Positions 31,329 to 47,593 of a DNA stretch of 64,000 nucleotides are shown here, in pieces. A program made the position numbers and the translations under genes. Below the pieces are notes generated by a model. The model was not told the DNA's origin. It searched no databases and saw only the letters and a list, made by a program, of their open reading frames with translations. The stretch comes from Thermoleophilia bacterium (lineage in GTDB: Bacteria > Actinomycetota > Thermoleophilia > BMS3ABIN01), in contig JACUUL010000003.1 in assembly GCA_014859345.1 (NCBI GenBank), positions 4,460-68,459 of the forward strand, written 5' to 3'. Position 1 is the first letter of the stretch, and each line of letters starts with the position of its first letter.

Positions 31329-32726
31329 ATGGAACTCAGCCAATCCTTAAAGACAAGCCAGCAGGTGGCCCTGTCCCCCAGGCTCTATGAGAGCCTGAAG
31401 ATCCTGAGACTGGGCGCGCACGAGCTCGGGGAGCTGGTCAAGCAAGAGCTGAACGAAAACCCGGCCCTGGAGATGCCGGAGCCATCCGAACTCGATATTG
31501 ATCTCGAACTGGACCGCACCGCCGTCATCGAGGCAGCCGGACCCGATCTCTGGCGGGATTTGTCCTCAGCCAGCAGGACTGTGGGGCGTCGCGATCCGTT
31601 GCGGGCCGGCGCGCCTGACGTGGGCGAGCTGGCCACCACCAGAGTCAGCCTCTATGATCATTTGACCCTGCAGCTGAGGCTTCTGCGATTTCCCCGGCAG
31701 AAGCGGCGCGCCGCCCTGGCCGTGATCGGCAGCCTCGATGATGACGGCTACCTGCGAGAGCCGGTAACGGAGATAGCCGCGACCCTTGGAAGGCCGCCGG
31801 CGGAAATCGAGGCGGCGCTCGAACTGGTGCAGGGCTTCGATCCCCCGGGCATCGCCGCGCGCAGCCTGCGGGAATGCCTCGCGCTGCAACTGGCGCGATT
31901 GAACGCTGGCCCCTTGGCCCTTGAAATTGCCAGGGAGCACCTGTCCAGGGTTGCCCGTGATGACCTTGCCGGGATCGCCCGGGATCTGGGAGCGCCGGTC
32001 CCCAGGGTGAAACGGGCAATAAAACTGATTCGCAGCCTTAATCCCCGCCCCGGATCACTCTTCGATTCTGGCACGGCGGCGGCAGTGGCTGTTCCGGATG
32101 TCTATGTCAAACATGAAAGAGGCAGGATCAGCATACTGCCCAACCGCGAGATCCAGCCGCCACTGCACATCAGCCGGCTTTACCGGCAGCTCGCCGAGGA
32201 TGCAGAACAGGCTCCCGGAACAACCGATGAAGAGACCATCAGGTTTATCAGGACCAAAATCCGGGAGGCCTCCCGACTGATTCGTGATATCGACCAGCGG
32301 CGCGCCACTGTCACCCGGGTAGCGCGCGCCATCGCCGCGGCCCAGCCGGAGTTTTTCCAGAAGGGTCCGGAACACCTGCGGCCGCTCGGCCTGGATGACA
32401 TCGCCGGCCGGCTGGACGTCCATGCATCCACCATCAGCCGCGCCATCCTTGACAAGTACATGAGTACCCCTCACGGAATCTTCGAATTCCGTTATTTCTT
32501 CTCGTCGGGATATCAGGCTTGCGGTGAGGGCGGCATCGCCGCCACGGCGGTGCGAAAGAGGCTGCAAAAAATGATCGAAGAAGAGGACAAGCGCCATCCG
32601 TTATCCGACCAGGAGCTGACAGGGCTTTTAAGGAAGGAAGGGGTGCCCATCGCCCGCAGAACCGTCGCCAAGTACCGTGAGGAGATGGGGATAGCCTCGT
32701 CCCGGGTCCGCCGTAAAGAAGCATGA
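31329..32726 (+). CDS. rpoN: RNA polymerase sigma-54 factor
   Basis: N-terminal region I (LKTSQQVALSPRLYESLKILRL...ELNENPALE), HTH, and C-terminal RpoN box ARRTVAKYREEMGI. Confidence 0.9.
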   Translation: MELSQSLKTSQQVALSPRLYESLKILRLGAHELGELVKQELNENPALEMPEPSELDIDLELDRTAVIEAAGPDLWRDLSSASRTVGRRDPLRAGAPDVGELATTRVSLYDHLTLQLRLLRFPRQKRRAALAVIGSLDDDGYLREPVTEIAATLGRPPAEIEAALELVQGFDPPGIAARSLRECLALQLARLNAGPLALEIAREHLSRVARDDLAGIARDLGAPVPRVKRAIKLIRSLNPRPGSLFDSGTAAAVAVPDVYVKHERGRISILPNREIQPPLHISRLYRQLAEDAEQAPGTTDEETIRFIRTKIREASRLIRDIDQRRATVTRVARAIAAAQPEFFQKGPEHLRPLGLDDIAGRLDVHASTISRAILDKYMSTPHGIFEFRYFFSSGYQACGEGGIAATAVRKRLQKMIEEEDKRHPLSDQELTGLLRKEGVPIARRTVAKYREEMGIASSRVRRKEA

Positions 32727-34237
32727 CATCTAATTCAAATACCGTCACCGTGATTCGGGATATCGCCATGGTCGCGTCGGGGATCGCCCTGATCAGCTAT
32801 TTTCATTTCTTTCCGCTCCATCTGGAGTTCATGTCCCACGAGACCTTCCACATCCTTCTGCGCCGACTTTACTATGTTCCGATTTTCTATGCCGCCATAC
32901 GCTTTGGTCTTAAAGGCGGGGTGATCGCTTCCCTGACCGCGACAGCCCTGTTCGCTCCCCATGCGGCCAGAACCCTGGGAGGCTTCCTCGGCCCCATATC
33001 GGTAGACAACCTTTTCGATATTATCCTTTACAATGTGGTGGGTCTGACCACCGGCCTTGTTGTGGACTCGCGCCGCCGCCAGGCCCACAGATATGAAGAG
33101 GTGGTCAATCTGAACCGCGAGATCGAAGACCGGGAAACGGCCATCCGCCACATGCAGGCGTATACCCAGAGCATCCTGAGCAGTGTCAGCAGCGGCGTCA
33201 TATCGTGCGACCGCCGGGGCGTTGTAGTCACAGCCAATCCGGTCGCCCGCAGGCTGCTGGGGCTTGGAGAGGAAGATATCGTGGGCTTCCCCCTTTCCCG
33301 CGTCTTTCCCGGGCACTCGGAATTGCTGCGGGCCGCACGGCTGATCTTAAGCGGAGAGCAGAAGCGCGCCACGCTGGAAACCTGCCTTGCCATCGAGGGC
33401 AGAACCCTCACGGTGGCAGTGCGGATAACTCCTCATCTCAGCCGCGGCCGCACCGTCGGCGCCGTCATCACCCTGGAAGACCTTACCGAAGTCAAGGATC
33501 TCACGGAGCAGCTTCTGCGCGCGGACCGGCTGTCGGGTCTGGGGGAGCTGGTGGCCGGCGTGGCGCACGAGGTGAGAAATCCTTTGGGCGTCATCCGCGC
33601 CAGCGTCCAGATGCTGGACCAGGAGATGGAAACCGGCAGCGGCGCCGCCGAGCTCAACCAGGTCATGCTGCAGGAAATCGACCGCCTCGATTCGGTGGTC
33701 GGCGCCCTGCTTGACTTCGGAAGCCCATCTGAGTCACAGTTTGGGCACGTCGAGCCGGTACGGGTGCTTGACGAGGTGATGCTGCTGACCAGGCATTTCG
33801 CCCAGCAACAGGAAATAGACATCGCCGCCGGTTATCCGGCGGAACTTCCCGGCGTATGGGCCGAAGAGGACAGGCTGAAACAGGTGTTCCTGAATCTGAT
33901 ATCAAACGCGATCCAGGCCATGCCAGGCGGGGGTTCGCTAAAGGTGTCGGCAGCACCCCGAGACGGCTATCTGCGCGTGGAAGTCACGGACACAGGCGGA
34001 GGCATCCCCCCGGAGGAGCAGAAAAGAATCTTTGACCCATTCCACACCACCCGGGCCGAGGGCAGCGGGCTCGGCCTTGCCATCGTGCACCGCATCGTGG
34101 ACGCCCATAACGGTTTCATCACGGTGGACAGCGAGCCGGGCAGGGGGAGCACCTTCACGGTGGGCATACCTCTATCGGGGGCCGCGATAACAGGCACGGC
34201 CATAGACGAGCCGGCCGGGGAAGCTGACGATGACTGA
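32723..34237 (+). CDS. membrane-bound PAS-domain sensor histidine kinase (NtrB/AtoS-like)
   Basis: N-terminal TM region, PAS (ILSSVSSGVISCDRRGVVVTANP), H-box GVAHEVRNPL, N-box LNLISNAIQA, G-boxes DTGGGI and GSGLGLAIV. Its ATG overlaps the rpoN stop (ATGA). Confidence 0.85.
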   Translation: MTSNSNTVTVIRDIAMVASGIALISYFHFFPLHLEFMSHETFHILLRRLYYVPIFYAAIRFGLKGGVIASLTATALFAPHAARTLGGFLGPISVDNLFDIILYNVVGLTTGLVVDSRRRQAHRYEEVVNLNREIEDRETAIRHMQAYTQSILSSVSSGVISCDRRGVVVTANPVARRLLGLGEEDIVGFPLSRVFPGHSELLRAARLILSGEQKRATLETCLAIEGRTLTVAVRITPHLSRGRTVGAVITLEDLTEVKDLTEQLLRADRLSGLGELVAGVAHEVRNPLGVIRASVQMLDQEMETGSGAAELNQVMLQEIDRLDSVVGALLDFGSPSESQFGHVEPVRVLDEVMLLTRHFAQQQEIDIAAGYPAELPGVWAEEDRLKQVFLNLISNAIQAMPGGGSLKVSAAPRDGYLRVEVTDTGGGIPPEEQKRIFDPFHTTRAEGSGLGLAIVHRIVDAHNGFITVDSEPGRGSTFTVGIPLSGAAITGTAIDEPAGEADDD

Positions 34238-35570
34238 TTCCATACTGGTCGTCGACGACGAGAAAAACATGCGTTTCGTGGTGGGGCGCGCCCTCAGGAG
34301 CGCCGGTCACGACGTGAGCGAGGCAGCCTCGGGAGAGGAGGCCCTCCGGGCGTTAGGGAAATCGGCTCCCAGCCTGGTGCTGCTCGATCAGCGGATGCCG
34401 GGAATGGATGGGCTGGCCACCCTCAAGGAGATGAAACGGCGTCAACCGGAGTTGCCGGTGGTGATGCTCACCGCCCACGGCAACATCGAGGACGCTGTCA
34501 AGGCCATGAAGGCCGGGGCATCCGATTACCTCACCAAGCCTTTCGACGTGGAAGAGCTGAAACTGGCCGTTGAGAAGGCGCTCAAGCTCAGCTGCCTCGA
34601 GCGGCAGGTGGATTTTCTGCGCGAAGAGCTCGGCCGGGATTACGATACCTCGGGCGTTATTGGCGAGAGCGCGCAGATGCAGGAAGTCCTGGCCACGGTG
34701 CGCCGGGTTGCCGCTACGGACGCTACCGTGATGATCTATGGCGAGAGCGGCACGGGCAAGGAACTCATCGCCAGGGCCATCCATAACGGCAGCCCGCGGG
34801 CCCGGGGGCCTTTCGTCCAGCTCAGCTGCGCGGCCCTGCCGGAGACCCTTCTGGAGAGCGAGCTTTTCGGTTACGAGAAGGGCGCCTTCACCGGCGCCAC
34901 CGGTTCCAAACCGGGCCGCTTCGAACTCGCCGATGGCGGCAGCCTGTTCCTGGACGAGATCGGAGACATATCTCCGGCGGTGCAGGTCAAGCTTCTGCGC
35001 GTCCTGGAAACCATGACATTCGAGCGCCTGGGATCCAACCAGACCGTCAGCGTCGACGTGCGACTCATCGGCGCCACCAACAGAGACCTGCCTCGGTTGA
35101 TAAGCGAAGGAGGATTCCGCGAGGACCTTTATTACCGCCTGAACGTGATCCCTGTCTGCATGCCGCCTCTGCGGGACCGGCCGGGGGACATCAAGCTGCT
35201 GGCCAAGCACTTCCTGGCCAGGCACGCTCCCGGCAAGGATCTGTCTCCGGAGGCCCTCCGGCATCTGGAGGATTACCGCTGGCCCGGCAACGTGCGCGAG
35301 CTGATCAACACGATCGAACGCGCCGGCATCTTAAGCCCCGGGCCTGTTATCGGCCCCGGTGATTTGCCGGCCGAGGTGCGGGCGGGAACATCGCCGGCCG
35401 CGGGCGGCTTCGAGCTCCCCCCGGAGGGCGTGACCCTGGAGCAGGTGGAGAAAGAGCTCATCGAACAGGCGCTGGCGCGCACCGGCGGCAACCGTACAAA
35501 GGCCGCCGGCCTGCTGGGCATAAGCCGCCATACGTTGCTTTACCGCATCGAGAAATATCATATTGGCTGA
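34230..35570 (+). CDS. sigma-54-dependent response regulator (NtrC-family bacterial enhancer-binding protein)
   Basis: Receiver ([13 protein letters not shown]), AAA+ domain with GESGTGKE Walker [16 protein letters not shown] (GAFTGA loop), and C-terminal Fis-type [23 protein letters not shown]. Overlaps the kinase gene by 8 nt. Confidence 0.9.
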
Positions 35571-35666: not shown

Positions 35667-36869
35667 ATGAAACGACTCGGACTCCTCTATCTGGCTGCGC
35701 AGAATCTGAAACGCAAGCCTTTTCGCAGTTTCGTTACCATTGCCATCGTCGGCCTCGCTGCCGGAACCCTGTTTTCCGCGACCCTGCTGGTCAAGAGCGT
35801 CGACCGCAGCCTGGAGGTGGGCCTGGAGCGTCTGGGAGCCGACGTCATGGTGATGCCCGAGGGCTCCCAGGAGCCGGGCGAGGCGGCTCTGCTCACCGGC
35901 TCGCCCACCAGTTTTTACATGGAGGAATCCGTCCTGGACCAGGTGAGGGCCGTGCCAGGAGTCTCGCAGGCATCTCCCCAGCTCTTTATCGAAACACTGG
36001 TCTCTTCCCAGTGCTGCACTGGTTATTTGCAGCTGGTCGGTTACGAACCGGCCACCGATTTTGTGGTGGAGCCCTGGCTCAGGCAGAATCTGAACAGGCC
36101 GCTGGAAGAGGATGAGGTGGTGGTCGGCTCCCTCATCCTGGCCAACAAGGGCGAACACGTTCACTTCTATGGCAAGGACTTCAGCGTGGCCGGTGTGCTC
36201 GACACAACCGGAATGGGCGCCGACGAAAGCGTCTTTCTGAGACTTGATGACGCCTACGAGATGGCCGTGGAGTCCGCCGCCGTGGCAGACGACGAACTGC
36301 TGATAACTCCCGGACAGATCTCCTCGGTGCTGGTCAAGATTGATCGGGACACGAACAGTGATCTGGTGGCCCAGCGCATCCGCACCGGCGTCGCCGGAGT
36401 TTCTGTCATAACGGCCGACGACCTTTCCCGCAGCGTGACCGACCGGATCTCCGGCTTCAAGCGCGGGTTCATCGCGCTGGATGCCATCGTCTGGGTGATG
36501 TCTCTGCTGACAATCGCCGCTATCTTTTCCATGATTGTCAATGAGCGGCAGCGGGAGATCGGCCTCATCCGCGCCATGGGCGGCACCCGCAATTTCATCT
36601 TCAGGCTGATGCTGGCCGAGGCGCTGTTGCTTACCGCAATCGGCGGGGCTGCCGGCGTCTTCCTGGGCGGCTCCGCCCTGTTCATTTTCAAGACGGTAAT
36701 CACAAGCAGCCTGGGTATTCCGTACCTCTGGCCTCCGATGTGGTACTTTGGGTCTATGATAGGCGGTACGCTGATGCTGTCCGTGGCCACCGGAGCCATT
36801 GCGTCGCTGTATCCGGCCCTCAGCTCCAGCCGTCTGGAGCCCTATCTGGCCATCAGGCGGGGAGAGTAA
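35667..36869 (+). CDS. MacB/FtsX-type ABC transporter permease
   Basis: One N-terminal TM, a ~230-aa extracytoplasmic domain, then three C-terminal TMs with the FtsX-type segment ERQREIGLIRAMGGTR. Confidence 0.8.
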   Translation: MKRLGLLYLAAQNLKRKPFRSFVTIAIVGLAAGTLFSATLLVKSVDRSLEVGLERLGADVMVMPEGSQEPGEAALLTGSPTSFYMEESVLDQVRAVPGVSQASPQLFIETLVSSQCCTGYLQLVGYEPATDFVVEPWLRQNLNRPLEEDEVVVGSLILANKGEHVHFYGKDFSVAGVLDTTGMGADESVFLRLDDAYEMAVESAAVADDELLITPGQISSVLVKIDRDTNSDLVAQRIRTGVAGVSVITADDLSRSVTDRISGFKRGFIALDAIVWVMSLLTIAAIFSMIVNERQREIGLIRAMGGTRNFIFRLMLAEALLLTAIGGAAGVFLGGSALFIFKTVITSSLGIPYLWPPMWYFGSMIGGTLMLSVATGAIASLYPALSSSRLEPYLAIRRGE

Positions 36870-36872
36870 GAC

Positions 36873-37604
36873 TTGGCAACAGAACAGGAGACAATCACGA
36901 ACGTGGAAAAAGCCGGAGAGACCGAAGGCCCCGTGATAAACCTTAAGGACCTGAGCAAAACATACAAGGTAGGTCCCAACACCGTGCGCGCGGTGGAGAG
37001 CCTGAGCCTGGAAATACCACGCGGACAGATGGTGTCCATCGTCGGCCACTCCGGAAGCGGCAAGACCACCCTGCTGAGCCTGATCGGGGGCCTCACAAAG
37101 CCGAGTTCCGGCAGGGTTCTCCTGGAGGGAAACAATATCTGGAACCTGACAGACAAAGAACTTTCCCGCTTGAGAAACGAGAGGGTCGGCTTTGCCTTCC
37201 AGTTCGCCAGCCTCTTTCCTACGCTCAACGCCATCGACAACGTGCGGCTGCCGGCCACTTTTGGCAACAGCGGCGCAGCGGATGACGGAAACCGGGCCAT
37301 GGACCTGCTTGGGCTTGTGGGGCTGAAAAGCCGGGCTCATTCCTATCCCGCCATGCTCTCAGGTGGCGAACAGCGCCGGGTGGCCTTGGCCCGGACGCTC
37401 ATGAACCGGCCCCGGATAATCCTGGCCGACGAACCGAGCGGCGACCTTGACGAGGACACCGAGGCTGACATCCTGGAAATTTTCAAGCGCATAAACGAGG
37501 AGGGTGTCACCATAGTCATCGTCACCCATTCCCGCGCCGTCGCCTCACAGGCCCAGCGGATGCTCAGAATGCACCGCGGCCATCTTTTCGAGGAGCTGGA
37601 GTAA
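36873..37604 (+). CDS. MacB/LolD-type ABC transporter ATP-binding protein
   Basis: Walker A GHSGSGKTT, signature LSGGEQRRVALAR, Walker B IILADEPSGDLD. Probable TTG start. Confidence 0.85.
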   Translation: MATEQETITNVEKAGETEGPVINLKDLSKTYKVGPNTVRAVESLSLEIPRGQMVSIVGHSGSGKTTLLSLIGGLTKPSSGRVLLEGNNIWNLTDKELSRLRNERVGFAFQFASLFPTLNAIDNVRLPATFGNSGAADDGNRAMDLLGLVGLKSRAHSYPAMLSGGEQRRVALARTLMNRPRIILADEPSGDLDEDTEADILEIFKRINEEGVTIVIVTHSRAVASQAQRMLRMHRGHLFEELE

Positions 37605-37605
37605 C

Positions 37606-37944
37606 TTGCGGCTCCGGTCCGGTTTCGTAATTTCCCTGGCCACCCTGGCCGCGGCCGCCCTCCTGCTCATAGCCCTCCTGTTTATAGTCTCCTGTGGCGA
37701 AAACCGGGCCGGCCTCATCGACCAGGACCAGTACGAACGCATCCAAAGAGGCATGACCATGGACGAGGTAGAATCCATTACCGGCATCCCCACCCGGACC
37801 CACCGGACCGGGCCGGCAACTGATCCCAACATCATCTGGTACTTCGATAAGAAAGATGGCGAGGGTTTGATACGCATATCCTTCGTCGGAGGCAAAGTGG
37901 ATTCAGTGTCTCCCTTCGACCCCGGCGTGGAGCAGCAGGAATAG
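37606..37944 (+). CDS. small lipoprotein with BLIP/SmpA-OmlA-like (DUF3862-like) domain
   Basis: Signal peptide ending in lipobox IVSC, then YERIQRGMTMDEVESITGIP typical of the small BamE/DUF3862 fold. Starts 2 nt after the ATPase stop. Confidence 0.55.
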   Translation: MRLRSGFVISLATLAAAALLLIALLFIVSCGENRAGLIDQDQYERIQRGMTMDEVESITGIPTRTHRTGPATDPNIIWYFDKKDGEGLIRISFVGGKVDSVSPFDPGVEQQE

Positions 37945-38045
37945 AACCTGGGCAGCTTCGCCTCGTTTCACCGAAAACTCATTTCTTCCCGTTCATCATG
38001 ACTGATCCTGCATTTCAGCAGTCAGGAATTCCCCGGGCTTGACGT

Positions 38046-38093
38046 GGCATCTCACACAATGCCTGTGGCAAAAAACGCATCTGCGGCCGATGC
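38046..38093. promoter_or_regulatory. two dyad-symmetric elements, candidate enhancer (UAS) for the NtrC-type activator
   Basis: GGCAT-N8-ATGCC (38046-38063) and GCATC-N7-GATGC (38077-38093). Their centres are about 30 bp apart, and they lie about 125-170 bp upstream of the -24 element. Confidence 0.3.
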
Positions 38094-38217
38094 TGGGCAG
38101 CCCCTAAAAGTAAAACGCCTGAAAAAGATCTCTTTCTGGCTCCCGGCCGATAAAATCCCCTCCAAAATAGCCCTTTTTAAAATTTGGGCGCCAGCTCTGC
38201 CAGGAGAGATTCCCCAT

Positions 38218-38233
38218 TGGCACGCCAATTGCT
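38218..38233 (+). promoter_or_regulatory. sigma-54 (-24/-12) promoter
   Basis: TGGCACGCCAATTGCT matches TGGCACG-N4-TTGCW at every conserved position, with GG-N10-GC spacing. It lies about 45 bp upstream of the ATG at 38279. Confidence 0.8.
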
Positions 38234-38278
38234 GCATTACATGTGGATAACTGTATTCCCCTGATTTCAACGTCGACC

Positions 38279-39358
38279 ATGGTAAAACAGAATGGCGGTA
38301 TCATAATCCTGTTTTTCGGAGCTGCAGTCTTGCTGGCAGCAGGCTTGTTCCTGGGCGTCCCCACAGCCGACATCCACCCCGGCGACGGCCATGCAGCCGT
38401 GGCGCTGGGAAGCCCGCTGAAAATCAGCTCATCTCCCTTTGCCAGGATTGGAAAAATCGCCGTCTATGCCGACGGGCAGCTCCTGGACATGGAGTACAAC
38501 CTTGGAACCGGAGACCTCACCCGCGACCTGGAAATCCGTCCGGGTCAGCAGGTGCGCGTGGAAGCCAAGGTGGCTTCACTCATCGGCCTTACCCGGGAGT
38601 TCACCTCCACTTTCACCACCGTGCCGCCATTGAAGATCGAATCGATGCGGGTGGACGGAGTCCCGTACGCTCCCGGAGACAGGATTCCGCCGCAACCGAC
38701 CCTGGCGTTCTTCTTTAGCAAGCCGGTCATCGAGGCCGCGGTTTCGCTGGATGGCAGCGAACCCATCGAGCTGGAGATCGATCCAGACGACGCCACTCTG
38801 GCTACCTTTCACCCGGTCGTCTCTTACAGGCAAGGGGCTACCTATGTGCTGGACATCACCGCCACTGCGGTGGACACGGCCACGCTCGAGCCTCTTCAGG
38901 TCCGCGCCAGCGTGGTGCCGCCACTTTCCCTTTACGGCCGCGTCGAGGAGGGGGATGGCGGCGTCATCATCGAGCTGAACGCAAACACTCCCTTCGCCGA
39001 TCCGGAAGCTGTCATGGCGGCGCTGGAAACCAACCTGCCCGGCGCCGGCATTTCGGTAGAGAGGCAGAGGATAATCATCTCCTGCCCGGGCCTCGACCCT
39101 GGCAGCGAGTATGACATAAAGCTCGCCAGTGCCGACGGCGCCAACGGCAGCTTTCTGGAAGCTCCGCTGGCCATGACTCTGAGCTTTAAGGCACAGCCTG
39201 CCCCGAGTGCCGGCGGTTATGTCTCCACTGGCTTTTATACCGGTTATGTCTATAACGCGGGCGGACCGGGCACGGGAGCCTCCGTTGCCGCCCAGGCAGG
39301 CCCGGAATCGGGCCCGCCTCCGGGCTGGCCCGACTGCTGTCCCTGGCCGCCACAATAA
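38279..39358 (+). CDS. N-terminally anchored extracytoplasmic protein with Ig-like (SbsA/Big_5-like) modules and a Gly/Tyr-rich tail ending in CC
   Basis: TM anchor GGIIILFFGAAVLLAAGLFLG, beta-rich modules, and C-terminus ...GGYVSTGFYTGYVYNAGGPG...PPPGWPDCCPWPPQ. ATG at 38279 chosen because ORF start 38243 would sit on top of the promoter. Confidence 0.6.
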   Translation: MVKQNGGIIILFFGAAVLLAAGLFLGVPTADIHPGDGHAAVALGSPLKISSSPFARIGKIAVYADGQLLDMEYNLGTGDLTRDLEIRPGQQVRVEAKVASLIGLTREFTSTFTTVPPLKIESMRVDGVPYAPGDRIPPQPTLAFFFSKPVIEAAVSLDGSEPIELEIDPDDATLATFHPVVSYRQGATYVLDITATAVDTATLEPLQVRASVVPPLSLYGRVEEGDGGVIIELNANTPFADPEAVMAALETNLPGAGISVERQRIIISCPGLDPGSEYDIKLASADGANGSFLEAPLAMTLSFKAQPAPSAGGYVSTGFYTGYVYNAGGPGTGASVAAQAGPESGPPPGWPDCCPWPPQ

Positions 39359-39363
39359 ACACC

Positions 39364-41796
39364 GTGAACCAGTACCGGAAAAAACATAATTTTTATGCAG
39401 CTCTTCTGTCACTTTCATTGGCCCTGTCCATGCTGGCGGCTGTGGCTCCCGCTGCCTTGCTGGCGGAGAACAGCCAGTCGGCGGCGAGCGCCTACGGAGC
39501 GCCTGCCCAGCCCGCTTCCGGCGGCGGTTCCGGGGAACAGGCAGGCGCCTTCCCCGTCGCCGGCGGCGACCCCGCGCCAGCTCCCGCGGCGCCGATGTTC
39601 ATGGCGGCAGCCGCGACTCCACAGGCAGCGGACACGGTCGCTCCCGTGATAACCGGCCTGACGCCGCCGGACGGGACCGTCACCGGCCCCACCGTTTTCA
39701 TCAGCGCCAGCTACAGCGATCCGGAGCCGTCGAGCGGCATAAACACCGCCACCGCCATGATTCATATCGACGACAGGCATCAGTACGGCTGCACCATCAC
39801 CGGGTCCGGCATCTCTCTCCTGAAAACCGGGTTGTCGGAAGGCCCTCATAAAATTGAGGCATTTATCTGCGACAAAAATTACAACTGCGCCGTCTCCGCC
39901 TGGCACATCACCGTGGACGCCACCGGGCCGGTTATTTCCGGCAGCCAGCCCACCGGCACCATCAACAGCAAGGATACGGTCATTTCCTCCTTTTTTAGCG
40001 ATGAAGATGGCGCCGGAGTCGACCCCGACTCGGCCGAGGTTTTGGTTGACGGAGAGAACATCACGGCTGGCTGCCAGGTCACGGCCGGGGGCATCGCCTG
40101 CCCGGCCACCGGCCTGGGCAACGGGGAGCATCACGTCCGGGTCTCTGTCTCTGACCTCGTGGGCAACCGCTCGTCCGGCAGCTGGAGCTTCAGCGTCAAC
40201 ACCGCCGCCATCGGCGTAACCGGCCAGTATCCGGTTCCCGGCAGCTGGACCAGAAACAGCATGCCGGCTGTCGGAGCCATCTTCCAGCAAGCGGGAACGG
40301 GAATCATAGACGTGTCATCCATTACCCTGTTGATTGACGGAGTTGATGTCAGCACCACCGCGGAGCGCCATGCTGGCGGAGTCAGGTACACCCCTTCTCC
40401 TCAAGAGCTTGCCGAGGGGTGGCATGCGGTCAGCCTGACCGTCGGCGATGATGAGGGATACGTGGGCCAGAGCGAGTGGTCCTTTGCCATCGATACCATC
40501 GCGCCCGTGATCAGGAACGTGGCGCCGACGGGGCTTACCACCAGCCTGCCATCTGTCTCCGCGTCATACTCCGATGATGGCAGCGGCATGGACCTGGCCA
40601 GCATCGACCTCATCATCGATGGCTTGAATGTGACCGGCTCAGCGACTGTCACTGCGGACAGCATCACCTACGTACCGCACGAAAGCTTTGCTTCAGGGCC
40701 GCACAACGCTCAGCTGTCAGTCCGGGACCTGGCCGGCAATCTGCAGGTTTCTGCCTGGAGCTTCAGCGTTCCGGCGCAGGGGCCGGTCTTCCAGCCTCCT
40801 TTACGGCAAACGAACCCCGGCCCATCTGTAACTGCCGTTACTGAATACTGGCTGAGCTACATCAATTTGCCGTTTTCGAGCGGAGGAAGTTGGGTCCTCT
40901 CCGGCTTTCATACTTTCCCGGCCACGTACTTTCTGCCCTGGTACGGCGCGGACCCGGCCGCGGGTGTGGACGGGCAGGAGATCGTCATCACGAACCGGGG
41001 GGCGGGGGAAGCATCCGTTTACGTGCTGGTGAGCGGCGAGAACGTATGGGAAGAAAAACTGGCCGAGGGCGGGACATCCGTGTGCCGGCTACCCGGCATC
41101 TCAGGCGGCCCGGTCAAGATCATCAGCCCCACGGGGAACCAGCTGGAAGTGGTAAGCAGGACGGCCGCCCGCGGCGGCGTCAGCGAAAGTCCGGCGGTGG
41201 CGCAGGAGGACCTGGAGCCTGTTCTGCTGATGCCCTGGTTTGAATCGCTGCCGGCGAGCACCGGCAGATCGACTCTCATAGTTGCCAATGCGGGCAGCGA
41301 AGAAGCATTGGTCGAGTTATATGTCGGCGACCCGGCGCTTGCCGAATCTCTGCGGGGCAGCCTTACTATCGGACCCGAAGCGGCAGTCGAGACGGAACTG
41401 CCCGGCGTCAGGAGTGGTCCGGTCAGGATAGAAAGCACCAACGGCCAGCCTCTGACAGCGGTTTACCGGGAAACCGCTCCGGATTCCTACTACGAAGCTC
41501 TCGCCACCGGTTTCTCCCGGCTTAATGACAGCTACCGCCTCGAGCCGGGCTCCGGAGAGCCGGCCAGGGGAAGAAAGCTGGTGCTGGGCAACGGCAATGA
41601 CGTGGACAAGCGAGCCTTTGTCAGCATCGGCGGTGAGCCGCTTGATGATCCGGAAAACCCCGGTGAGGAATTCATCGTCGTGCCCCGCCACGGCGTCCGG
41701 ATTCTGGAAATCCCCGGAGATTTCTCCCGGCCTGTGCTGATCAAATGCGAGGATTGCAAGCTCGGCGAAGGCCTGTCTCCGGGATTCAGGCGCTAA
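39364..41796 (+). CDS. secreted 810-aa protein: about four Ig-like modules followed by three beta-sandwich repeats related to those of the amidase/SpoIID protein
   Basis: Signal peptide LLSLSLALSMLAAVAPAALLA. Repeated modules of the form D..AP.I....P.G......ISASYSD..SG.D..S....IDG..V........I.Y.P...L..G.H.....V.D.AGN.....WSFSV. C-terminal units FLPWYG...ITNRG...GGPVKI and LMPWFE...VANAG...SGPVRI. GTG start. Confidence 0.65.
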   Translation: MNQYRKKHNFYAALLSLSLALSMLAAVAPAALLAENSQSAASAYGAPAQPASGGGSGEQAGAFPVAGGDPAPAPAAPMFMAAAATPQAADTVAPVITGLTPPDGTVTGPTVFISASYSDPEPSSGINTATAMIHIDDRHQYGCTITGSGISLLKTGLSEGPHKIEAFICDKNYNCAVSAWHITVDATGPVISGSQPTGTINSKDTVISSFFSDEDGAGVDPDSAEVLVDGENITAGCQVTAGGIACPATGLGNGEHHVRVSVSDLVGNRSSGSWSFSVNTAAIGVTGQYPVPGSWTRNSMPAVGAIFQQAGTGIIDVSSITLLIDGVDVSTTAERHAGGVRYTPSPQELAEGWHAVSLTVGDDEGYVGQSEWSFAIDTIAPVIRNVAPTGLTTSLPSVSASYSDDGSGMDLASIDLIIDGLNVTGSATVTADSITYVPHESFASGPHNAQLSVRDLAGNLQVSAWSFSVPAQGPVFQPPLRQTNPGPSVTAVTEYWLSYINLPFSSGGSWVLSGFHTFPATYFLPWYGADPAAGVDGQEIVITNRGAGEASVYVLVSGENVWEEKLAEGGTSVCRLPGISGGPVKIISPTGNQLEVVSRTAARGGVSESPAVAQEDLEPVLLMPWFESLPASTGRSTLIVANAGSEEALVELYVGDPALAESLRGSLTIGPEAAVETELPGVRSGPVRIESTNGQPLTAVYRETAPDSYYEALATGFSRLNDSYRLEPGSGEPARGRKLVLGNGNDVDKRAFVSIGGEPLDDPENPGEEFIVVPRHGVRILEIPGDFSRPVLIKCEDCKLGEGLSPGFRR

Positions 41797-41857
41797 ATTT
41801 ACATGCTGCCGGCTCATGCCGCAAGGAACTTAAATCTGAACAGGAGGATGTGAGGGA

Positions 41858-43162
41858 ATGAAAGGAAACAGGCTTTTACTCAAGACGATTTTGCTGATCG
41901 CGGCGCTGGGAATCGCAGCTGCGTCTTTCACCGCCGCAGCCGGCGCCACCGACGATGTGACCCCACCGGTGGTCACCAGCGTCGTGCCTGCCGATGGCAG
42001 CACCATTTACACCAACGGTGATTCTACCATCTATTACCAGCTTGGCAATCCAACCCCCATGACCATCAGGGCCGAGTACAGTGACGAGCCCGGCGGCAGC
42101 GGCGTCGACACGGATAGCGTCATGGTCCATCTGGATATAGCCAACATGCTTTACGACTGTCCCGTCTGGACGGACGCCGAGATCGCCTGCAACGCGACCG
42201 CGGCCGACCTGGCTCCGGGGCTGCACCCGCTCGATATTTATGTTTTTGACCTGGCCGGCAACCCAACCGTGCATCGCACCTGGTTCACGGTTGCCGTCGA
42301 TGACGAGACGCCCTCTTATGCCAACTTGTCGCCGGCGGACGGCAGCATCATCTACACGTCCGAGCTGAACAGCGCCGGCAACAACGATATGGACGCCCTG
42401 CGCGTAGAATACGATGTCATCGATCCGGAGCCGTCCAGCGGCGTAAACCCGATGAGCCATGTCAATGACAGCTTTCCGCCCGGCGTGTCCGGCGCCATGA
42501 TCTCGAACACGTCCTGTGTGAAAAACCCCGACGCCGATAATCCGGTTCACTATTCGTGCCAGTTAAACAGGGCCAGGTTGCTTCAGCTGGGCGAAAACCA
42601 GCTCTCGGTCCTGCTAAAGGACAGGGTGGGCAACAACAACCACGAGGATCCCTCGAGCCTGAACACCTACACTGTGATTGACGACGTCGAGCCGGTTGTC
42701 AGCGACATCGCCGCGGACGAGACCGCCATCAGCGCCTCCTTCAGCGACCCGCTGCCTGACGGAGCCCTCTCCACCCTGCTGGCCAGCGGCATCGATACGG
42801 ATACCGCGAAGATTCTTGTCGACGACGCCATGATCACGGAAGGCTGCACGGCCACGGAGACGGGGATCAGCTGTCCCACGCCCACGGAGCTGCCTGACGG
42901 TACGTACGACATCGAGGTGATGGTTTCCGATAACGACGGAAACCAGGGCCTGGGCGCCGGCACGCTGAGCATCGGAGCGCCTTCCTGCACTCCGGGAAGC
43001 CCGGCCTGGGCCTGCGTCACTGGAACGCCTACTGGGCCTCACTGGCCGATTACGAGGCGAGGCTGCTTTCGGTGCCGTTCAGGGTCGTCAACTTCGGTGC
43101 TACCGCCGCCGCCGGTGTACAGTTCACTTCGAGCGCGCCCGGCGCCGGTGTCGAGCTGGTGA
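41858..43162 (+). CDS. secreted Ig-repeat protein, apparently frameshifted near 42994
   Basis: Signal peptide LLKTILLIAALGIAAASFTAAAGA, then about four modules of the same type as the 810-aa protein, each with a Cys pair. The last ~55 codons (PSCTPGSPAWACVTGTPTGPHWPITRRGCFRCRS...) look like out-of-frame translation. Confidence 0.6.
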   Translation: MKGNRLLLKTILLIAALGIAAASFTAAAGATDDVTPPVVTSVVPADGSTIYTNGDSTIYYQLGNPTPMTIRAEYSDEPGGSGVDTDSVMVHLDIANMLYDCPVWTDAEIACNATAADLAPGLHPLDIYVFDLAGNPTVHRTWFTVAVDDETPSYANLSPADGSIIYTSELNSAGNNDMDALRVEYDVIDPEPSSGVNPMSHVNDSFPPGVSGAMISNTSCVKNPDADNPVHYSCQLNRARLLQLGENQLSVLLKDRVGNNNHEDPSSLNTYTVIDDVEPVVSDIAADETAISASFSDPLPDGALSTLLASGIDTDTAKILVDDAMITEGCTATETGISCPTPTELPDGTYDIEVMVSDNDGNQGLGAGTLSIGAPSCTPGSPAWACVTGTPTGPHWPITRRGCFRCRSGSSTSVLPPPPVYSSLRARPAPVSSW

Positions 43163-43314
43163 CGCCGGTGCCGCATCCCGTGGGTGACATCCCGGCGGGA
43201 GATACGGCTGATGCCACCCTGGTATTCCAGGTGCCCCAGGGCACGGCCAGCTTTCGCACCGCCAACACCGCCAGCGCCGAGGATACTTGCGGCAATTTGT
43301 ATCAGTATCCGTAA
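43072..43314 (+). CDS. probable displaced C-terminal domain of the preceding gene, in a different frame (open from 42934)
   Basis: This frame reads ...KPGLGLRHWNAYWASLADYEARLLSVPFRVVNFGATAAAGVQFTSSAPGAGVELVTPVPHPVGDIPAGDTADATLVFQVPQGTASF..., a plausible beta-sandwich domain, and overlaps the implausible tail of 41858..43162. Confidence 0.5.
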   Translation: MPFRVVNFGATAAAGVQFTSSAPGAGVELVTPVPHPVGDIPAGDTADATLVFQVPQGTASFRTANTASAEDTCGNLYQYP

Positions 43315-43346
43315 ACAGGAGCTGACGAGACACAGGAGGAACAAGA

Positions 43347-43811
43347 ATGATGAGTAAACGCAATAGCATGGCAGCCGGAGCCGGTGTCGCCGCCCTGGGG
43401 GCGCTGGTCGCCGCCACCCCCAGATATCTCTTTCCGGTATGCGAATATTTCGGCGTGCGGATGGAAATGCAGGGCAGGACAGATCACATGCACTGTTTTT
43501 ACACCGCCAGAGCCTCGCTGATGATTGGATTGATCATCGGCCTCATAGGCATAGCCCTCTTCCTCTCCCGGAGGCCGGAGACCCGGCGCCTGCTCTCACT
43601 GGTCCTGGCAGGCTCTGCCGGCGCGGTCATTCTGGTCCCAACAGCCCTGTTTACCGTATGTCAAAACCCCGACATGCATTGTAACCACGGCACCGTGCCT
43701 CTGCTCATCGTTCTCGGGATCACCACTTTGCTCTTCTCGGGATGGTTGGGACTGACCTCCCGCGCGCCCGAATCCATGGAGGAGCCCTCCCTGGCCGAAG
43801 CACTGCGCTAG
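43347..43811 (+). CDS. DUF4418-like four-TM membrane protein with conserved cysteines
   Basis: Four hydrophobic segments and two Cys-containing loops (FPVCEYFG..M.M....HMHCFYTA and FTVCQNPDMHCNHG), matching my recollection of DUF4418 proteins. Confidence 0.5.
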   Translation: MMSKRNSMAAGAGVAALGALVAATPRYLFPVCEYFGVRMEMQGRTDHMHCFYTARASLMIGLIIGLIGIALFLSRRPETRRLLSLVLAGSAGAVILVPTALFTVCQNPDMHCNHGTVPLLIVLGITTLLFSGWLGLTSRAPESMEEPSLAEALR

Positions 43812-43845
43812 CCAGTAACCAAGATCCCATCATCCGGAGCCAGCA

Positions 43846-43884
43846 GGCCCCGGCCCCGCGCGGGCCGGGGCCTCCTTTTTTTTT
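43846..43884 (+). terminator. rho-independent terminator
   Basis: Perfect 11-bp GC stem GGCCCCGGCCC / GGGCCGGGGCC with a 5-nt loop, followed by TCC and a run of nine T, 35 nt after the stop of the DUF4418-like gene. Confidence 0.85.
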
Positions 43885-44544: not shown

Positions 44545-44683
44545 GGCTTCCCGTTCGGGAAATCAGAAACCCGGATGCACCATGCTCAGTTCCCCGCGGC
44601 TATCCCGGCACAGGCGTCCAGATAAATCAACAAGGAAGGGATACGGTAAGCCCGAGTTTCAGGTTTTTCGGGAAAGGGCGTTT

Positions 44684-45910
44684 CTACCGGGAGTTTTTGG
44701 CTATCTCCTTGAGGAACTGCTCGTTGGCTTTTGTGTCCCGCAGCTTGGAGATAAGCAGCTCCAGAGCCGCGGCCGGATCAAGCGCGTGCAGCACGTTCCG
44801 CACCTTCCAGACCTGGATGGCCTCCTGCTCGTCCATCAGCAACTCTTCCTTCCTGGTGCCGGACCGCTCTATGTCGATAGCCGGGAAGACCCGCTTGTCC
44901 GCCAGCTTGCGGTCCAGATGCAGCTCCATGTTGCCTGTGCCCTTGAATTCCTCGAAGATGACCTCATCCATGCGGCTGCCGGTGTCGACCAGCGCCGTGG
45001 CCAGGATGGTCAGAGAGCCGCCTTCCTCCACGTTCCGGGCCGCGCCAAAGAACTTCTTGGGCGGGAACAGGGCTGTTGAATCGACGCCGCCGGAGAGAAT
45101 GCGGCCGCTGGCCGGAGCCGTCAGATTGTAGGCGCGCGCCAGCCTGGTGATGCTGTCCAGCAGCACCACCACGTCTCGCCCCGACTCTACCAGGCGCTTG
45201 ACGCGATCCAGTACCAGCTCGGCCACCTGAACGTGATTGTCCGAGGGTTGGTCGAAGGTAGAGCTGACCACCTCGCCGTCCACCGAGCGCTGCCAGTCCG
45301 TAACCTCCTCCGGACGTTCATCGACCAGAAGCACCAGCAGGTACATATCGGGGTTGTTGATCGTGATGGCGTTGGCCAGCTGTTTGAGGATGGTCGTCTT
45401 GCCGGCTTTCGGGGGCGAGACGATCAGCCCCCGCTGGCCCTTGCCGATCGGCGCGACCAGGTCGATTACCCGTGTGGAGATCTCGGTGGGCTTGGTTTCC
45501 AGCCTCAAACGTTCCACCGGGAACAGCGGCGTGAGCCTGTCGAAAAAGGGCCGGCCCCGCGCTTCCTCGGGATCCATGCCGTTGACAGCTTCTATCTTCA
45601 GCAGCGCGTTGTATTTCTCGCTGTCCTTGGGCTCCCGGACCTGCCCGGTCACCTCATCGCCGCGCCTCAGGCTGAAACGGCGTATTTGGGAGAGCGAGAC
45701 ATAAATGTCATTGTCGCTCTGGGTATATCCCCGGGTGCGCAGGAAGCCGAATCCATCGGGCAGGAGGTCGAGCGTGCCTGTCCTGACCTTGACATCCTCC
45801 GCGCTCTTGTCCTTCTCTTCCTTGGCCGGTTTCCGGCGCGTGGGCGTGCGAGCGGCACGCTCGTCGCCGGTTGTTTTCTTTTCCTGTTCCTGATTTTCTG
45901 CTACTTCCAT
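44684..45910 (-). CDS. rho: transcription termination factor Rho
   Basis: Lys/Arg-rich N-terminal insertion, RNA-binding domain GFGFLR, Walker A PPKAGKT, and [25 protein letters not shown]. Confidence 0.92.
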
Positions 45911-45986
45911 GATTTCACCTTGGCGCTTTAAAGGGCGGATTATAAGCGCATGATTTTAGGTAGGTTGTTGACCTTCCGGTTTTGCC

Positions 45987-46661
45987 CTAGCCGAGTCTTT
46001 CGGCCGCCTCCCTGTTCCTGGCCTGGGCCTTCTCCCAATCGTTCTTGAAACTTGCGATGCCTCTGTCGGTTAACGGATGCTTGACCATCTTGCGGTATAC
46101 ATCCGGAGGAATCGTGGCGATGTCGCAACCAAGCAGAGCGGCTTCGGTGACGTGCAAAGGGTGTCGGATGCTGGCTGCGATTACTTTAGTCGAAAATTCA
46201 TTGACAGCGAACACCTCGACTATGTCCGACAGCACCTGCGATGAATCGTGCCCGATATCATCGAGCCTTCCCACGAAAGGGCTTACAAAAGTGGCTCCCG
46301 CTCTTGCCGCCAGGAGTGCCTGGTTTGCCGAAAACACCAGAGTGACATTGGTTTTGACCCCCTGGCCGTTCAGTTCCCGGGCCCCGCTTAAGCCCTCCGG
46401 TGACATCGGCAGCTTGATGACCACATTTTCGTCGAGGCCGGCGAGCCGTTCCGCTTCCATTACCATACCCTCGGCGTCCTCAGACATAACTTCTGCGCTG
46501 ACGGGGCCGCCGACCAGATCACAGATCTCCCGGATGATTTCATCGTAGTCACCGCTTTCCCGGGAAAGCAGGGTGGGATTAGTGGTCGCTCCGGATAATA
46601 CGCCCCAGGCGGCAATTTCCCTGATGTCCTCGATGTTGGCGGTGTCAATATACAACTCCAT
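45987..46661 (-). CDS. fsa: fructose-6-phosphate aldolase / type 3B transaldolase
   Basis: MELYIDTANIEDIRE...GATTNPTLL...ISPFVGRLDD family motifs. Its ATG overlaps the upstream TGA by 1 nt (TGATG), with AGGTGA upstream. Confidence 0.85.
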   Translation of the reverse strand: MELYIDTANIEDIREIAAWGVLSGATTNPTLLSRESGDYDEIIREICDLVGGPVSAEVMSEDAEGMVMEAERLAGLDENVVIKLPMSPEGLSGARELNGQGVKTNVTLVFSANQALLAARAGATFVSPFVGRLDDIGHDSSQVLSDIVEVFAVNEFSTKVIAASIRHPLHVTEAALLGCDIATIPPDVYRKMVKHPLTDRGIASFKNDWEKAQARNREAAERLG

Positions 46662-47593
46662 CAAATCACCTCTGCTTCAAGACCTGATTCGTGGTACCTG
46701 CTGACGGTATCGAGCACTATTCCCATGACGACCTTGACAGCATCGTCGATACTGTGGTTATCAATGACTGGCACATTGGCGTCCCGGGCCGATTGCAGCA
46801 TATGCTCCTGTACCCGTCTGATCTTGTCCATGCTCTCGACGTATTTTTTCAGCGAACGGACGCCGCCGGTCTCCTGGTCCCTGACAAAAAAGTGGCTCCG
46901 GTGCCTGTCTTCGTCAGTAACCGCCATTACCACCTGTATGACTATCGCCCTTGTCCAAAGGTCCTCGTTGAGGTAACCCGGCAACAGGTGGGCGCCTTCG
47001 ACCACCATCCGGGTGCCTTCGTTGATGGCCCTTTCGATGATCGCGTTGACGCCCACGCTCACTTTTTCCACCTGCTCCAGGTAGCCGTCGATCACCCGGT
47101 CGGCTCCCTTTGCGGTTTTCACCGCTTCCCCCGCCTCGAACGAGGAGTAGTGGATCTCCGGCATCAGCTCCGGCGCGAAAAAGGCCCGCATCGCCTGACG
47201 GACCGAATCCGTCGAGGTCAGCCGAGTCACTCCCAGCCGGTGCGCCACCTGGGTCGCCAGCGTGCTCTTGCCGACACCGGTGGCGCCTCCGATCATAATG
47301 ATGATCGGCTTCTCCAGTTCTCCCAGCATCCGCCAGCGGCGGTAACGCTCCGTGAAACTCTGTCCCTCTTCTTCTCCAAGAACCTGCTGGGCGATCTTCT
47401 GCAGCTTCTGAAGCGTGATGCCCGATTCGCCGCTTTCCATCAGATGCCGCTCGACTTCCTGGGCCACGTGGTACGCCCTTTCCGGCGGAAGCCCCGTGGC
47501 CATGATCGACTGGGCCATGAGCCCCTTGGAGTACGAAAGACCATACTCCTTGCCGATGATCTGCAGGTCCAGGTGTCTCTTGAGATCAGCCAA
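46661..47593 (-). CDS. 2-phosphoglycerate kinase
   Basis: YSKGLMAQSIMATGL..ERAYHVAQEVERHL N-domain, and P-loop IGGATGVGKSTLA followed by TSTDSVRQAMR, as in archaeal 2PGK (COG2074). Probable TTG start at 47593 overlapping the upstream stop. Confidence 0.65.
   Translation of the reverse strand: MADLKRHLDLQIIGKEYGLSYSKGLMAQSIMATGLPPERAYHVAQEVERHLMESGESGITLQKLQKIAQQVLGEEEGQSFTERYRRWRMLGELEKPIIIMIGGATGVGKSTLATQVAHRLGVTRLTSTDSVRQAMRAFFAPELMPEIHYSSFEAGEAVKTAKGADRVIDGYLEQVEKVSVGVNAIIERAINEGTRMVVEGAHLLPGYLNEDLWTRAIVIQVVMAVTDEDRHRSHFFVRDQETGGVRSLKKYVESMDKIRRVQEHMLQSARDANVPVIDNHSIDDAVKVVMGIVLDTVSRYHESGLEAEVI

Follow-up and report, generated by a model that had tools for sequence, protein, structure and literature searches.

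Can a sigma-54 promoter, together with the regulators that would open it, reside in a bacterium assigned to Actinomycetota? The question is raised by a 64-kb stretch of DNA (the window; 64,000 nucleotides of contig JACUUL010000003.1, assembly GCA_014859345.1) from a Thermoleophilia bacterium, in which a sigma-54 (-24/-12) promoter core, TGGCACGCCAATTGCT, lies on the plus strand at 38218-38233. Actinobacteria and Cyanobacteria have been reported to 'lack the Sigma-54 system' (Francke et al. 2011, PMC3162934), and the site owes its interest to its host lineage, Actinomycetota having been reviewed as devoid of sigma-54; as a promoter it is an ordinary, textbook sigma-54 site with an equally ordinary architecture. 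We conclude that it is very probably a classical enhancer-dependent sigma-54 promoter, controlled by the adjacent two-component system and driving an operon of surface proteins. The first-pass annotation had proposed a sigma-54 promoter for this operon of immunoglobulin (Ig)-like repeat proteins, a proposal now supported by the unique match, its strand and position, an rpoN gene and a GAFTGA activator gene in cis, conservation among relatives and an enhancer-like element. The enhancer, three intervening genes, the second and third promoters of relatives and the placement in Actinomycetota are additions to that annotation.

The core carries GG at 38219-38220 and GC at 38231-38232, which gives exact GG-N10-GC spacing, and as originally claimed it fits the consensus TGGCACG-N4-TTGCW at all 12 specified positions. 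It is the sole exact match on either strand of the window, where 0.02 such matches would be expected by chance, and only 2 of 100 dinucleotide-preserving shuffles contained one. No site with a single mismatch to this consensus was present on either strand of the window, and the sites having two or fewer mismatches (six, the exact match plus five with two mismatches) did not exceed the chance expectation of 10.3. Scored with an approximate general sigma-54 matrix, 38218-38233 obtained 18.4 of a possible 18.8 bits, the runner-up in the window being at 12.9 bits, and a sigma-54 matrix built from relatives only gave 18.0 bits versus 9.3 for the runner-up. Matrix scoring therefore ranks the site first by more than 5 bits, in line with its description as the best sigma-54 target in the window, and the mismatch and matrix scans agree with the earlier inspection by eye in finding no comparable site upstream of 35667, 8355, 44095 or 25312. 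Taken by itself the motif match would be judged significant, not overwhelming.

The site lies within a 334-bp non-coding intergenic region, on the same strand as the operon and 46 bp before the ATG at 38279 (a distance first estimated as about 45 bp), which leaves room for a 5' untranslated region. Sigma-54 transcripts begin about 12 nucleotides past the GC, and from its position transcription is predicted to start at about 38243-38245, in agreement with the 38244-38246 anticipated by the first-pass annotation. A simple sigma-70 scan, which models actinobacterial promoters poorly, detected no sigma-70-like promoter on the plus strand between 37945 and 38278. At the level of sequence the site possesses every attribute of a sigma-54 promoter.

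Conservation provides the next line of evidence. Homologs of the first operon protein number 39 in all, and those with an organism name derive without exception from uncultured metagenome-assembled genomes (MAGs). The loci compared were nine obtained by a scan of GTDB species representatives plus exact look-ups on contigs of 712, 261 and 203 kb, and the conservation count takes in the 12 orthologous loci that have upstream sequence. The conserved gene order is ATP-binding cassette (ABC) ATPase, ABC-2 permease, rpoN, kinase, activator, FtsX, ABC, lipoprotein, intergenic region, first operon protein, Big_13 and DUF4418. The sequence TTGGCAC(G/A)-N4-TTGCT was found on the coding strand 5' of the ortholog of the first operon gene in 12 of 12 loci. 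Alignment of the intergenic regions showed the -24 and -12 blocks to be invariant, with variation in the four spacer bases and in most of the flanking sequence. Extending the comparison to all 23 non-redundant sites of the clade, TGGCA and TTGC were invariant throughout and the 4-nucleotide spacer was variable. The core is thus conserved in the clade, among genomes whose encoded proteins are just 45-60% identical and whose flanking intergenic DNA is poorly conserved.

Relatives have further sites of this kind. A second sigma-54 site lies 55-110 bp upstream of the DUF4418 gene in 11 loci, and two loci (L010 and L011) have a third site further downstream. In the window, unlike in the relatives, motif and matrix scans revealed no further sigma-54 site ahead of either DUF4418 or 44095. 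The gene order of the window is also rearranged (Big_13, Big_13, DUF4418). Given the first site alone and the rearranged gene order, a single promoter would seem to drive the whole four-gene operon.

The promoter position is also retained when the cargo genes change. The BMS3Abin01 genome shares the neighborhood (kinase, activator, FtsX, ABC and lipoprotein genes), and its top sigma-54 matrix match, TTGGCAAGTTCTTTGCT, scores 18.1 bits (the next scores 9.1) and lies directly 3' of the lipoprotein gene; an enhancer-like element is found about 175 bp upstream of it and the downstream genes differ from those of the window. A more distant genome (L014; GCA_009668945.1, 'Actinobacteria bacterium', 432-kb contig) has a 40%-identical rpoN within an rpoN-PAS kinase-activator triad, different downstream genes (small protein, HMA and DsbD-like) and a consensus TGGCATG-N4-TTGCA located 35 bp past its activator gene. 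A weaker L014 sequence, TGGTAC-N5-TTGC, lies 42 nucleotides before rpoN (the two L014 sites are at 9959 and 14299) and could mean that rpoN is autoregulated there.

The regulators that such a promoter would require are encoded by intact upstream genes. The rpoN gene (31329-32726, plus strand), recognized by Pfam, NCBIfam, motif and structure comparison, encodes a protein of 465 residues having the activator-interacting, core-binding and DNA-binding domains of sigma-54 (Pfam PF00309, PF04963 and PF04552, respectively). The protein matches the NCBIfam equivalog TIGR02395 at 402 bits versus a cutoff of 277. Its RpoN box, ARRTVAKYR, is found at residue 442, and its alignment with solved sigma-54 structures spans the entire protein. 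The next gene (32723-34237, plus strand; Pfam and overlap) encodes a membrane histidine kinase with a MASE1-like membrane region and PAS, HisKA and HATPase domains. The third (34230-35570, plus strand; Pfam and motif check) encodes an NtrC-type enhancer-binding response regulator composed of PF00072 (REC, with Asp53), PF00158 (AAA+, E = 2e-71), PF25601 and PF02954 (Fis-type HTH_8), with Walker A sequence GESGTGKE and GAFTGA at residue 218. As rpoN overlaps the kinase gene by 4 nucleotides (ATGA) and the kinase gene overlaps the activator gene by 8 nucleotides, the three are probably one translationally coupled unit. The REC aspartate, the AAA+ domain, the Fis-type helix-turn-helix and the overlapping HisKA/HATPase kinase gene together identify an NtrC-family two-component system. 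The activator scores below the NCBIfam equivalog cutoffs for AtoC (515 versus 714), NtrC (460 versus 559) and ZraR (431 versus 760), which places it within the NtrC family but not as an ortholog of a named activator. TIGR02915 (the PEP-CTERM regulator PEP_resp_reg) was among its better matches (414 bits, cutoff 502.6). No second activator is encoded in the 64-kb window.

The first-pass annotation described the promoter as immediately downstream of this rpoN/activator block. Downstream is correct; immediately is loose, because three genes intervene (35667-37944). These encode a MacB/FtsX-type permease (35667-36869), an ABC ATPase (36873-37604) and a small lipoprotein (37606-37944), all on the plus strand and assigned by Pfam and synteny. 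The three genes occupy this position between regulators and promoter in all of the relatives, and their products may be a sensing partner or an exporter.

The intergenic alignment contains a second conserved block, which we consider to be a candidate enhancer (upstream activating sequence). The element is 33 bp long and has three half-sites, and the window copy, CGTGGCATCTCACACAATGCCTGTGGCAAAAAACGCA at 38043-38079 (no strand assigned), starts 175 bp upstream of the promoter TGG. Its consensus is TGTGnCATnTnCCACAC-N5-GTGnCAnAA. In the relatives the half-sites read TGTGG, CCACA and TGTGG and are spaced about 11 bp apart, which would put them on one face of the helix. An enhancer matrix trained on the relatives only, with the window left out, gave its two best window-wide matches both at 38043-38079 (18.5 and 20.7 bits), the next match being at 9.2 bits. 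In the relatives all three sigma-54 positions (first, second and third) have the element 144-212 bp (mostly 176 bp) upstream, and it is also present 178 bp upstream of the third promoter of L010, which was outside the training set. Of the matches exceeding 12 bits in about 281 kb, all but one sit 135-212 bp upstream of a sigma-54 site. Enhancers of this class typically lie 80-200 bp upstream of their promoters, and the 175-bp distance of this sequence feature falls within that range. Dyad symmetry, 11-bp phasing and a location about 175 bp upstream are typical of NtrC-family enhancers, and the adjacent activator would be the protein that binds 38043-38079. The spacer that separates enhancer from promoter (38080-38217, no strand assigned, defined by composition) is richer in AT than the window as a whole (49% versus 42%), and several A/T tracts occur in it, some of them about 10-12 bp apart. 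Such tracts are suggestive of an intrinsic bend that could aid looping. A conserved T-rich block (seen in alignment A2) lies about 40 bp upstream of the promoter.

The target operon (38279-43811, plus strand) has four genes, all of which encode surface or membrane proteins. The first (38279-39358, plus strand), characterized by AlphaFold2, Foldseek and family alignment, encodes a 359-residue protein having a transmembrane helix at its N-terminus, three Ig/FN3-like beta-sandwich domains in tandem, a disordered linker and, at its C-terminus, the conserved sequence PPPGWPDCCPWPPQ; the AlphaFold2 model has a pLDDT of 82.6. Foldseek returned just generic tandem Ig/FN3 arrays (Ig-like domains of L,D-transpeptidases, fibronectin and SiiE), which point to no specific function. 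Two secreted Big_13 (bacterial Ig-like) proteins with signal peptides follow, one of 810 residues (39364-41796) and one of 434 residues (41858-43162), and the last gene (43347-43811) encodes a DUF4418 membrane protein of 154 residues and is preceded by an AGGAGG ribosome-binding site (these three on the plus strand, from Pfam and sequence). A strong intrinsic terminator at 43845-43883 on the plus strand closes the operon; its stem-loop (43845-43873) has a 12-bp stem with 11 G-C pairs and is followed by a T-run.

Several features of these genes deserve mention in their own right. Following the disordered linker, the C-terminus of the first protein family (39295-39355) is a near-invariant proline-rich sequence, GPPPGWP(P/D)CCPWPPQ, that contains two cysteines. 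No transmembrane helix follows this motif, and neither an LPXTG nor a PEP-CTERM signal was found there; to our knowledge it resembles no sorting signal. The 434-residue Big_13 protein differs from its relatives in its last ~40 residues (orthologs have 487 residues) and a 184-bp gap separates it from DUF4418 (region ~43030-43346), which could reflect a frameshift or truncation linked to the rearranged gene order. The start of the first gene also requires comment. A GTG at 38243-38245, in frame with this gene, coincides with the predicted transcription start, making a leaderless mRNA conceivable. Leaderless mRNAs are common in Actinomycetota. We considered a leaderless start at this GTG and preferred the ATG at 38279, because the N-terminal lengths of the homologs fit the latter. 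The protein starting at ATG 38279 had no exact match in public assemblies, the gene caller having chosen a later start. The relatives have a conserved leader of 150-230 nucleotides between the sigma-54 promoter and the first gene (L001 9823-9976, L002 4629-4805, L010 9831-10000), which is absent from 38244-38278 of the window. The leader forms a 14-bp hairpin with compensatory changes at several pairs, and the hairpin loop, CUGGGGG, is complementary to flanking CCCCAG motifs, one of which is beside the start codon. An Rfam search of the window and eight related loci at the gathering threshold gave tRNAs only, so the leader fits no described RNA family. It may provide translational or attenuation control that was lost in the lineage of the window.

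These elements suggest the following mechanism. The locally encoded sigma-54 would direct RNA polymerase to the -24/-12 element at 38218-38233, where it would be held as a closed complex. In response to a signal, probably related to the envelope, the membrane PAS kinase would phosphorylate Asp53 of the activator, which would then assemble on the three half-sites of the enhancer at 38043-38079. The activator would loop over the AT-rich spacer and open the promoter by ATP hydrolysis through its GAFTGA loop. The resulting rpoN-dependent transcript would start near 38244, cover the four genes (Ig-like plus DUF4418) in about 5.6 kb and end at the 43845-43883 terminator.

Several observations weigh against this interpretation. 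Whole-window shuffles sometimes attain the matrix scores of the site (1 of 30 for the general matrix; a maximum of 21.6 bits in 40 shuffles for the relatives-only matrix), and for this reason the case for 38218-38233 rests on context plus conservation. The second promoter and structured leader of the relatives are missing from the window. The window copy of the enhancer is the weakest and most divergent of the set (18.5-20.7 bits versus 30-44 bits in relatives) and its first two half-sites lie 2 bp closer together. The ATG at 38279 lacks a preceding Shine-Dalgarno sequence. No terminator was seen between the end of the lipoprotein gene (37944) and the promoter (38218), and hence read-through from upstream could add to operon expression. 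Finally, assignment of the host to Actinomycetota depends on MAG labels and on one adjacent marker gene, that encoding Rho. Comparison of this Rho with solved structures gave 490 bits for 7oqh_A and 483-484 bits for the next chains, values too close to be phylogenetically informative, and a search of the window plus L001-L014 (~300 kb) found no WhiB-like signature, a result that is uninformative either way.

The last of these points bear on the alternative that survives best, although we consider it unlikely: that the promoter is real and the host is not a true actinomycete, the MAGs being misclassified or the contig coming from another phylum of Terrabacteria (Chloroflexota or Bacillota, for example), in which case the site would be routine. 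All of the taxonomic evidence is in the form of labels on uncultured MAGs, and there is a precedent in an 'actinobacterial' rpoN that came from a misclassified Bacillota (PMC12316311). Against this stands the consistency of the labels, the same class having been assigned in at least eight independent studies or binning efforts. The titles of all nine GTDB species-representative loci name Actinomycetes, Thermoleophilia or Gaiellales MAGs, which derive from independent studies, and the closest rpoN relatives (45-63% identical) are, where labeled, Thermoleophilia or Gaiellales. Misbinning of a small fragment is implausible, because the cluster is interior to the 712-, 261- and 203-kb contigs and is flanked there by the same conserved housekeeping neighbors as in the window (transaldolase, ATP-cone kinase-like, CpgS-like and Rho genes); this also argues against a mobile island. 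Rho, a standard marker, is encoded about 800 bp past the operon terminator (44684-45910, minus strand; TIGR00767, 634 bits), and 14 of the 16 nearest taxon-named relatives of this protein are from Thermoleophilia, Gaiellales or Actinobacteria MAGs. The remaining two are a 90%-identical protein labeled 'Chloroflexi', which sits on a 4-kb contig, and an 85%-identical protein labeled just 'bacterium BMS3Abin01'. The latter name is that of a GTDB order: BMS3ABIN01 is an uncultured order and family of the class Thermoleophilia, Actinomycetota (PMC13503563), and the genome carries the same neighborhood. NCBI taxonomy likewise puts Thermoleophilia in Actinomycetota. The likeliest host is thus an uncultured bacterium of the class Thermoleophilia, in or near the order BMS3ABIN01, and its placement in Actinomycetota is in our view probable.

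It is also conceivable, and in our view very unlikely, that the promoter is real and that another enhancer-binding protein activates it, the upstream element binding a different factor or having some other role. The window is just 64 kb of the genome, and the half-site GTGGCA resembles a -24 element, so some other tie of the element to the transcription machinery might exist. However, every locus keeps the adjacent activator gene in synteny with the promoter and the enhancer, the symmetry, phasing and distance of the element are those noted above for NtrC-family enhancers, it accompanies all three promoter positions of the cluster and the window offers no rival activator gene. The remaining alternative, that the site arose by chance or is a relic without function, the operon being read through from the upstream ABC genes or transcribed from an unrecognized housekeeping promoter, could draw on the failure to detect a terminator ahead of the promoter, the high-scoring shuffles, the shortcomings of the sigma-70 scan and the prior loss of the second promoter and leader, but is extremely improbable given the exact-match expectation of 0.02, the twelve positions that are invariant over 12 orthologous loci amid divergent spacer and flanks, the location of the window's best enhancer match at the clade-typical 175 bp and the retention of a complete rpoN-activator system next door.

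An enhancer-dependent sigma-54 promoter under the adjacent two-component system thus remains our preferred reading, and it has close parallels in known systems. Like the glnAp2-type promoters served by NtrB/NtrC in Enterobacteria, it has a -24 GG/-12 GC core without -35 and -10 elements, an activator of REC-AAA+(GAFTGA)-Fis-HTH composition and dyad-type enhancer sites more than 100 bp upstream. Unlike those promoters, its enhancer consists of three TGTGG/CCACA half-sites with 11-bp spacing about 175 bp upstream rather than TGCACCA-N3-TGGTGCA, its targets are surface Ig-like proteins rather than functions of nitrogen assimilation, its rpoN is the first gene of the regulator operon and its host is labeled Actinomycetota. 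The rpoN gene lies directly downstream of ABC-transporter genes, an arrangement that recalls the lptB-rpoN linkage of Proteobacteria. The PEP-CTERM PrsK/PrsR system (TIGR02915) similarly links a sigma-54 response regulator and a membrane kinase to secreted surface proteins. It differs in that the activator described here scores below the TIGR02915 cutoff and neither a PEP-CTERM motif nor an exosortase was found here; the C-terminal motif PPPGWPxCCPWPP, present in the first operon protein only, is unrelated to PEP-CTERM.

A survey published in 2025 concluded that Actinomycetota have no functional sigma-54 system and based a GC-content hypothesis on that absence; rpoN-like genes turned up in 4 of its 173 actinomycetotal genomes, of which just one was judged bona fide and came from a misclassified Bacillota (PMC12316311). 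The present gene resembles the hits of that survey in being an rpoN in genomes labeled Actinomycetota. It differs from them in having three domains above curated cutoffs, in keeping its synteny across at least 13 loci of independent MAGs and in being accompanied by a cognate activator and conserved promoters. In the open-access literature, searches that paired sigma-54 or rpoN with Thermoleophilia, Actinobacteriota or Actinomycetota returned no account of such a system. The NCBI pipeline labels the proteins 'RNA polymerase factor sigma-54' in MAG records; hence the rpoN genes have been annotated already and apparently have gone undiscussed.

Other features of the window lie outside of the sigma-54 cluster. 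Two plus-strand open reading frames past the operon (44582-45079 and 45233-45931) look conserved in relatives by tblastn and were rejected as operon members because they are shadow reading frames opposite rho. Beyond rho, an ATP-cone plus P-loop kinase-like gene (46661-47686, minus strand) adjoins a gene encoding a 461-residue protein (47586-48971, minus strand). Orthologs of the latter in L010, L012, L013 and L015 carry PF27272 (CpgS_N, cyclic 2,3-diphosphoglycerate synthetase); a Pfam scan of the window copy gave no match and thus its link to CpgS rests on synteny. The pair resembles the archaeal thermoprotectant pathway of 2-phosphoglycerate kinase and cyclic 2,3-diphosphoglycerate synthetase, which would be unusual for bacteria. 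On its upstream side the sigma-54 cluster is preceded by a large envelope-glycan region (4550-26631) that encodes many glycosyltransferases of families GT2 and GT4, a Wzm/Wzt ABC exporter, a pyruvyl-transferase fusion and a 1260-residue amidase/SpoIID protein. No sigma-54 site was found within this region.

What would the locus mean for the lineage? If the taxonomy fails, it is a well-documented but routine promoter. If the taxonomy holds, a complete system of rpoN, kinase, activator, enhancer and promoter, syntenic in at least 13 independent Thermoleophilia-labeled genomes including the BMS3ABIN01 reference, is a testable counter-example to the view that the phylum is without sigma-54. We tentatively suggest, as a possibility to which we give rather less than even weight, that the locus is a self-contained sigma-54 cassette, in which the sigma factor is private to a surface-protein program instead of being a global alternative sigma factor. 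The rpoN gene would be coupled to its own kinase and activator and would sit beside the only promoters under its control, which form one to three enhancer-promoter pairs in a span of 10 kb, much in the manner of an extracytoplasmic function (ECF) sigma module. If true, this would overturn the claim that Actinomycetota lack functional RpoN and would count against the exclusion of sigma-54 by high GC content, the loci being 55-62% GC and the distant L014 triad 66%. The parts are small enough for synthesis and reconstitution, and the locus offers a means of asking if sigma-54 can function with the RNA polymerase core of an actinobacterium and if the system was inherited or acquired. Sigma-54 has been described as a 'controller of the bacterial exterior' (Francke et al. 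2011, PMC3162934), and the regulon members found here, all of which are envelope or surface proteins, fit that theme and would extend it to a presumably monoderm lineage.

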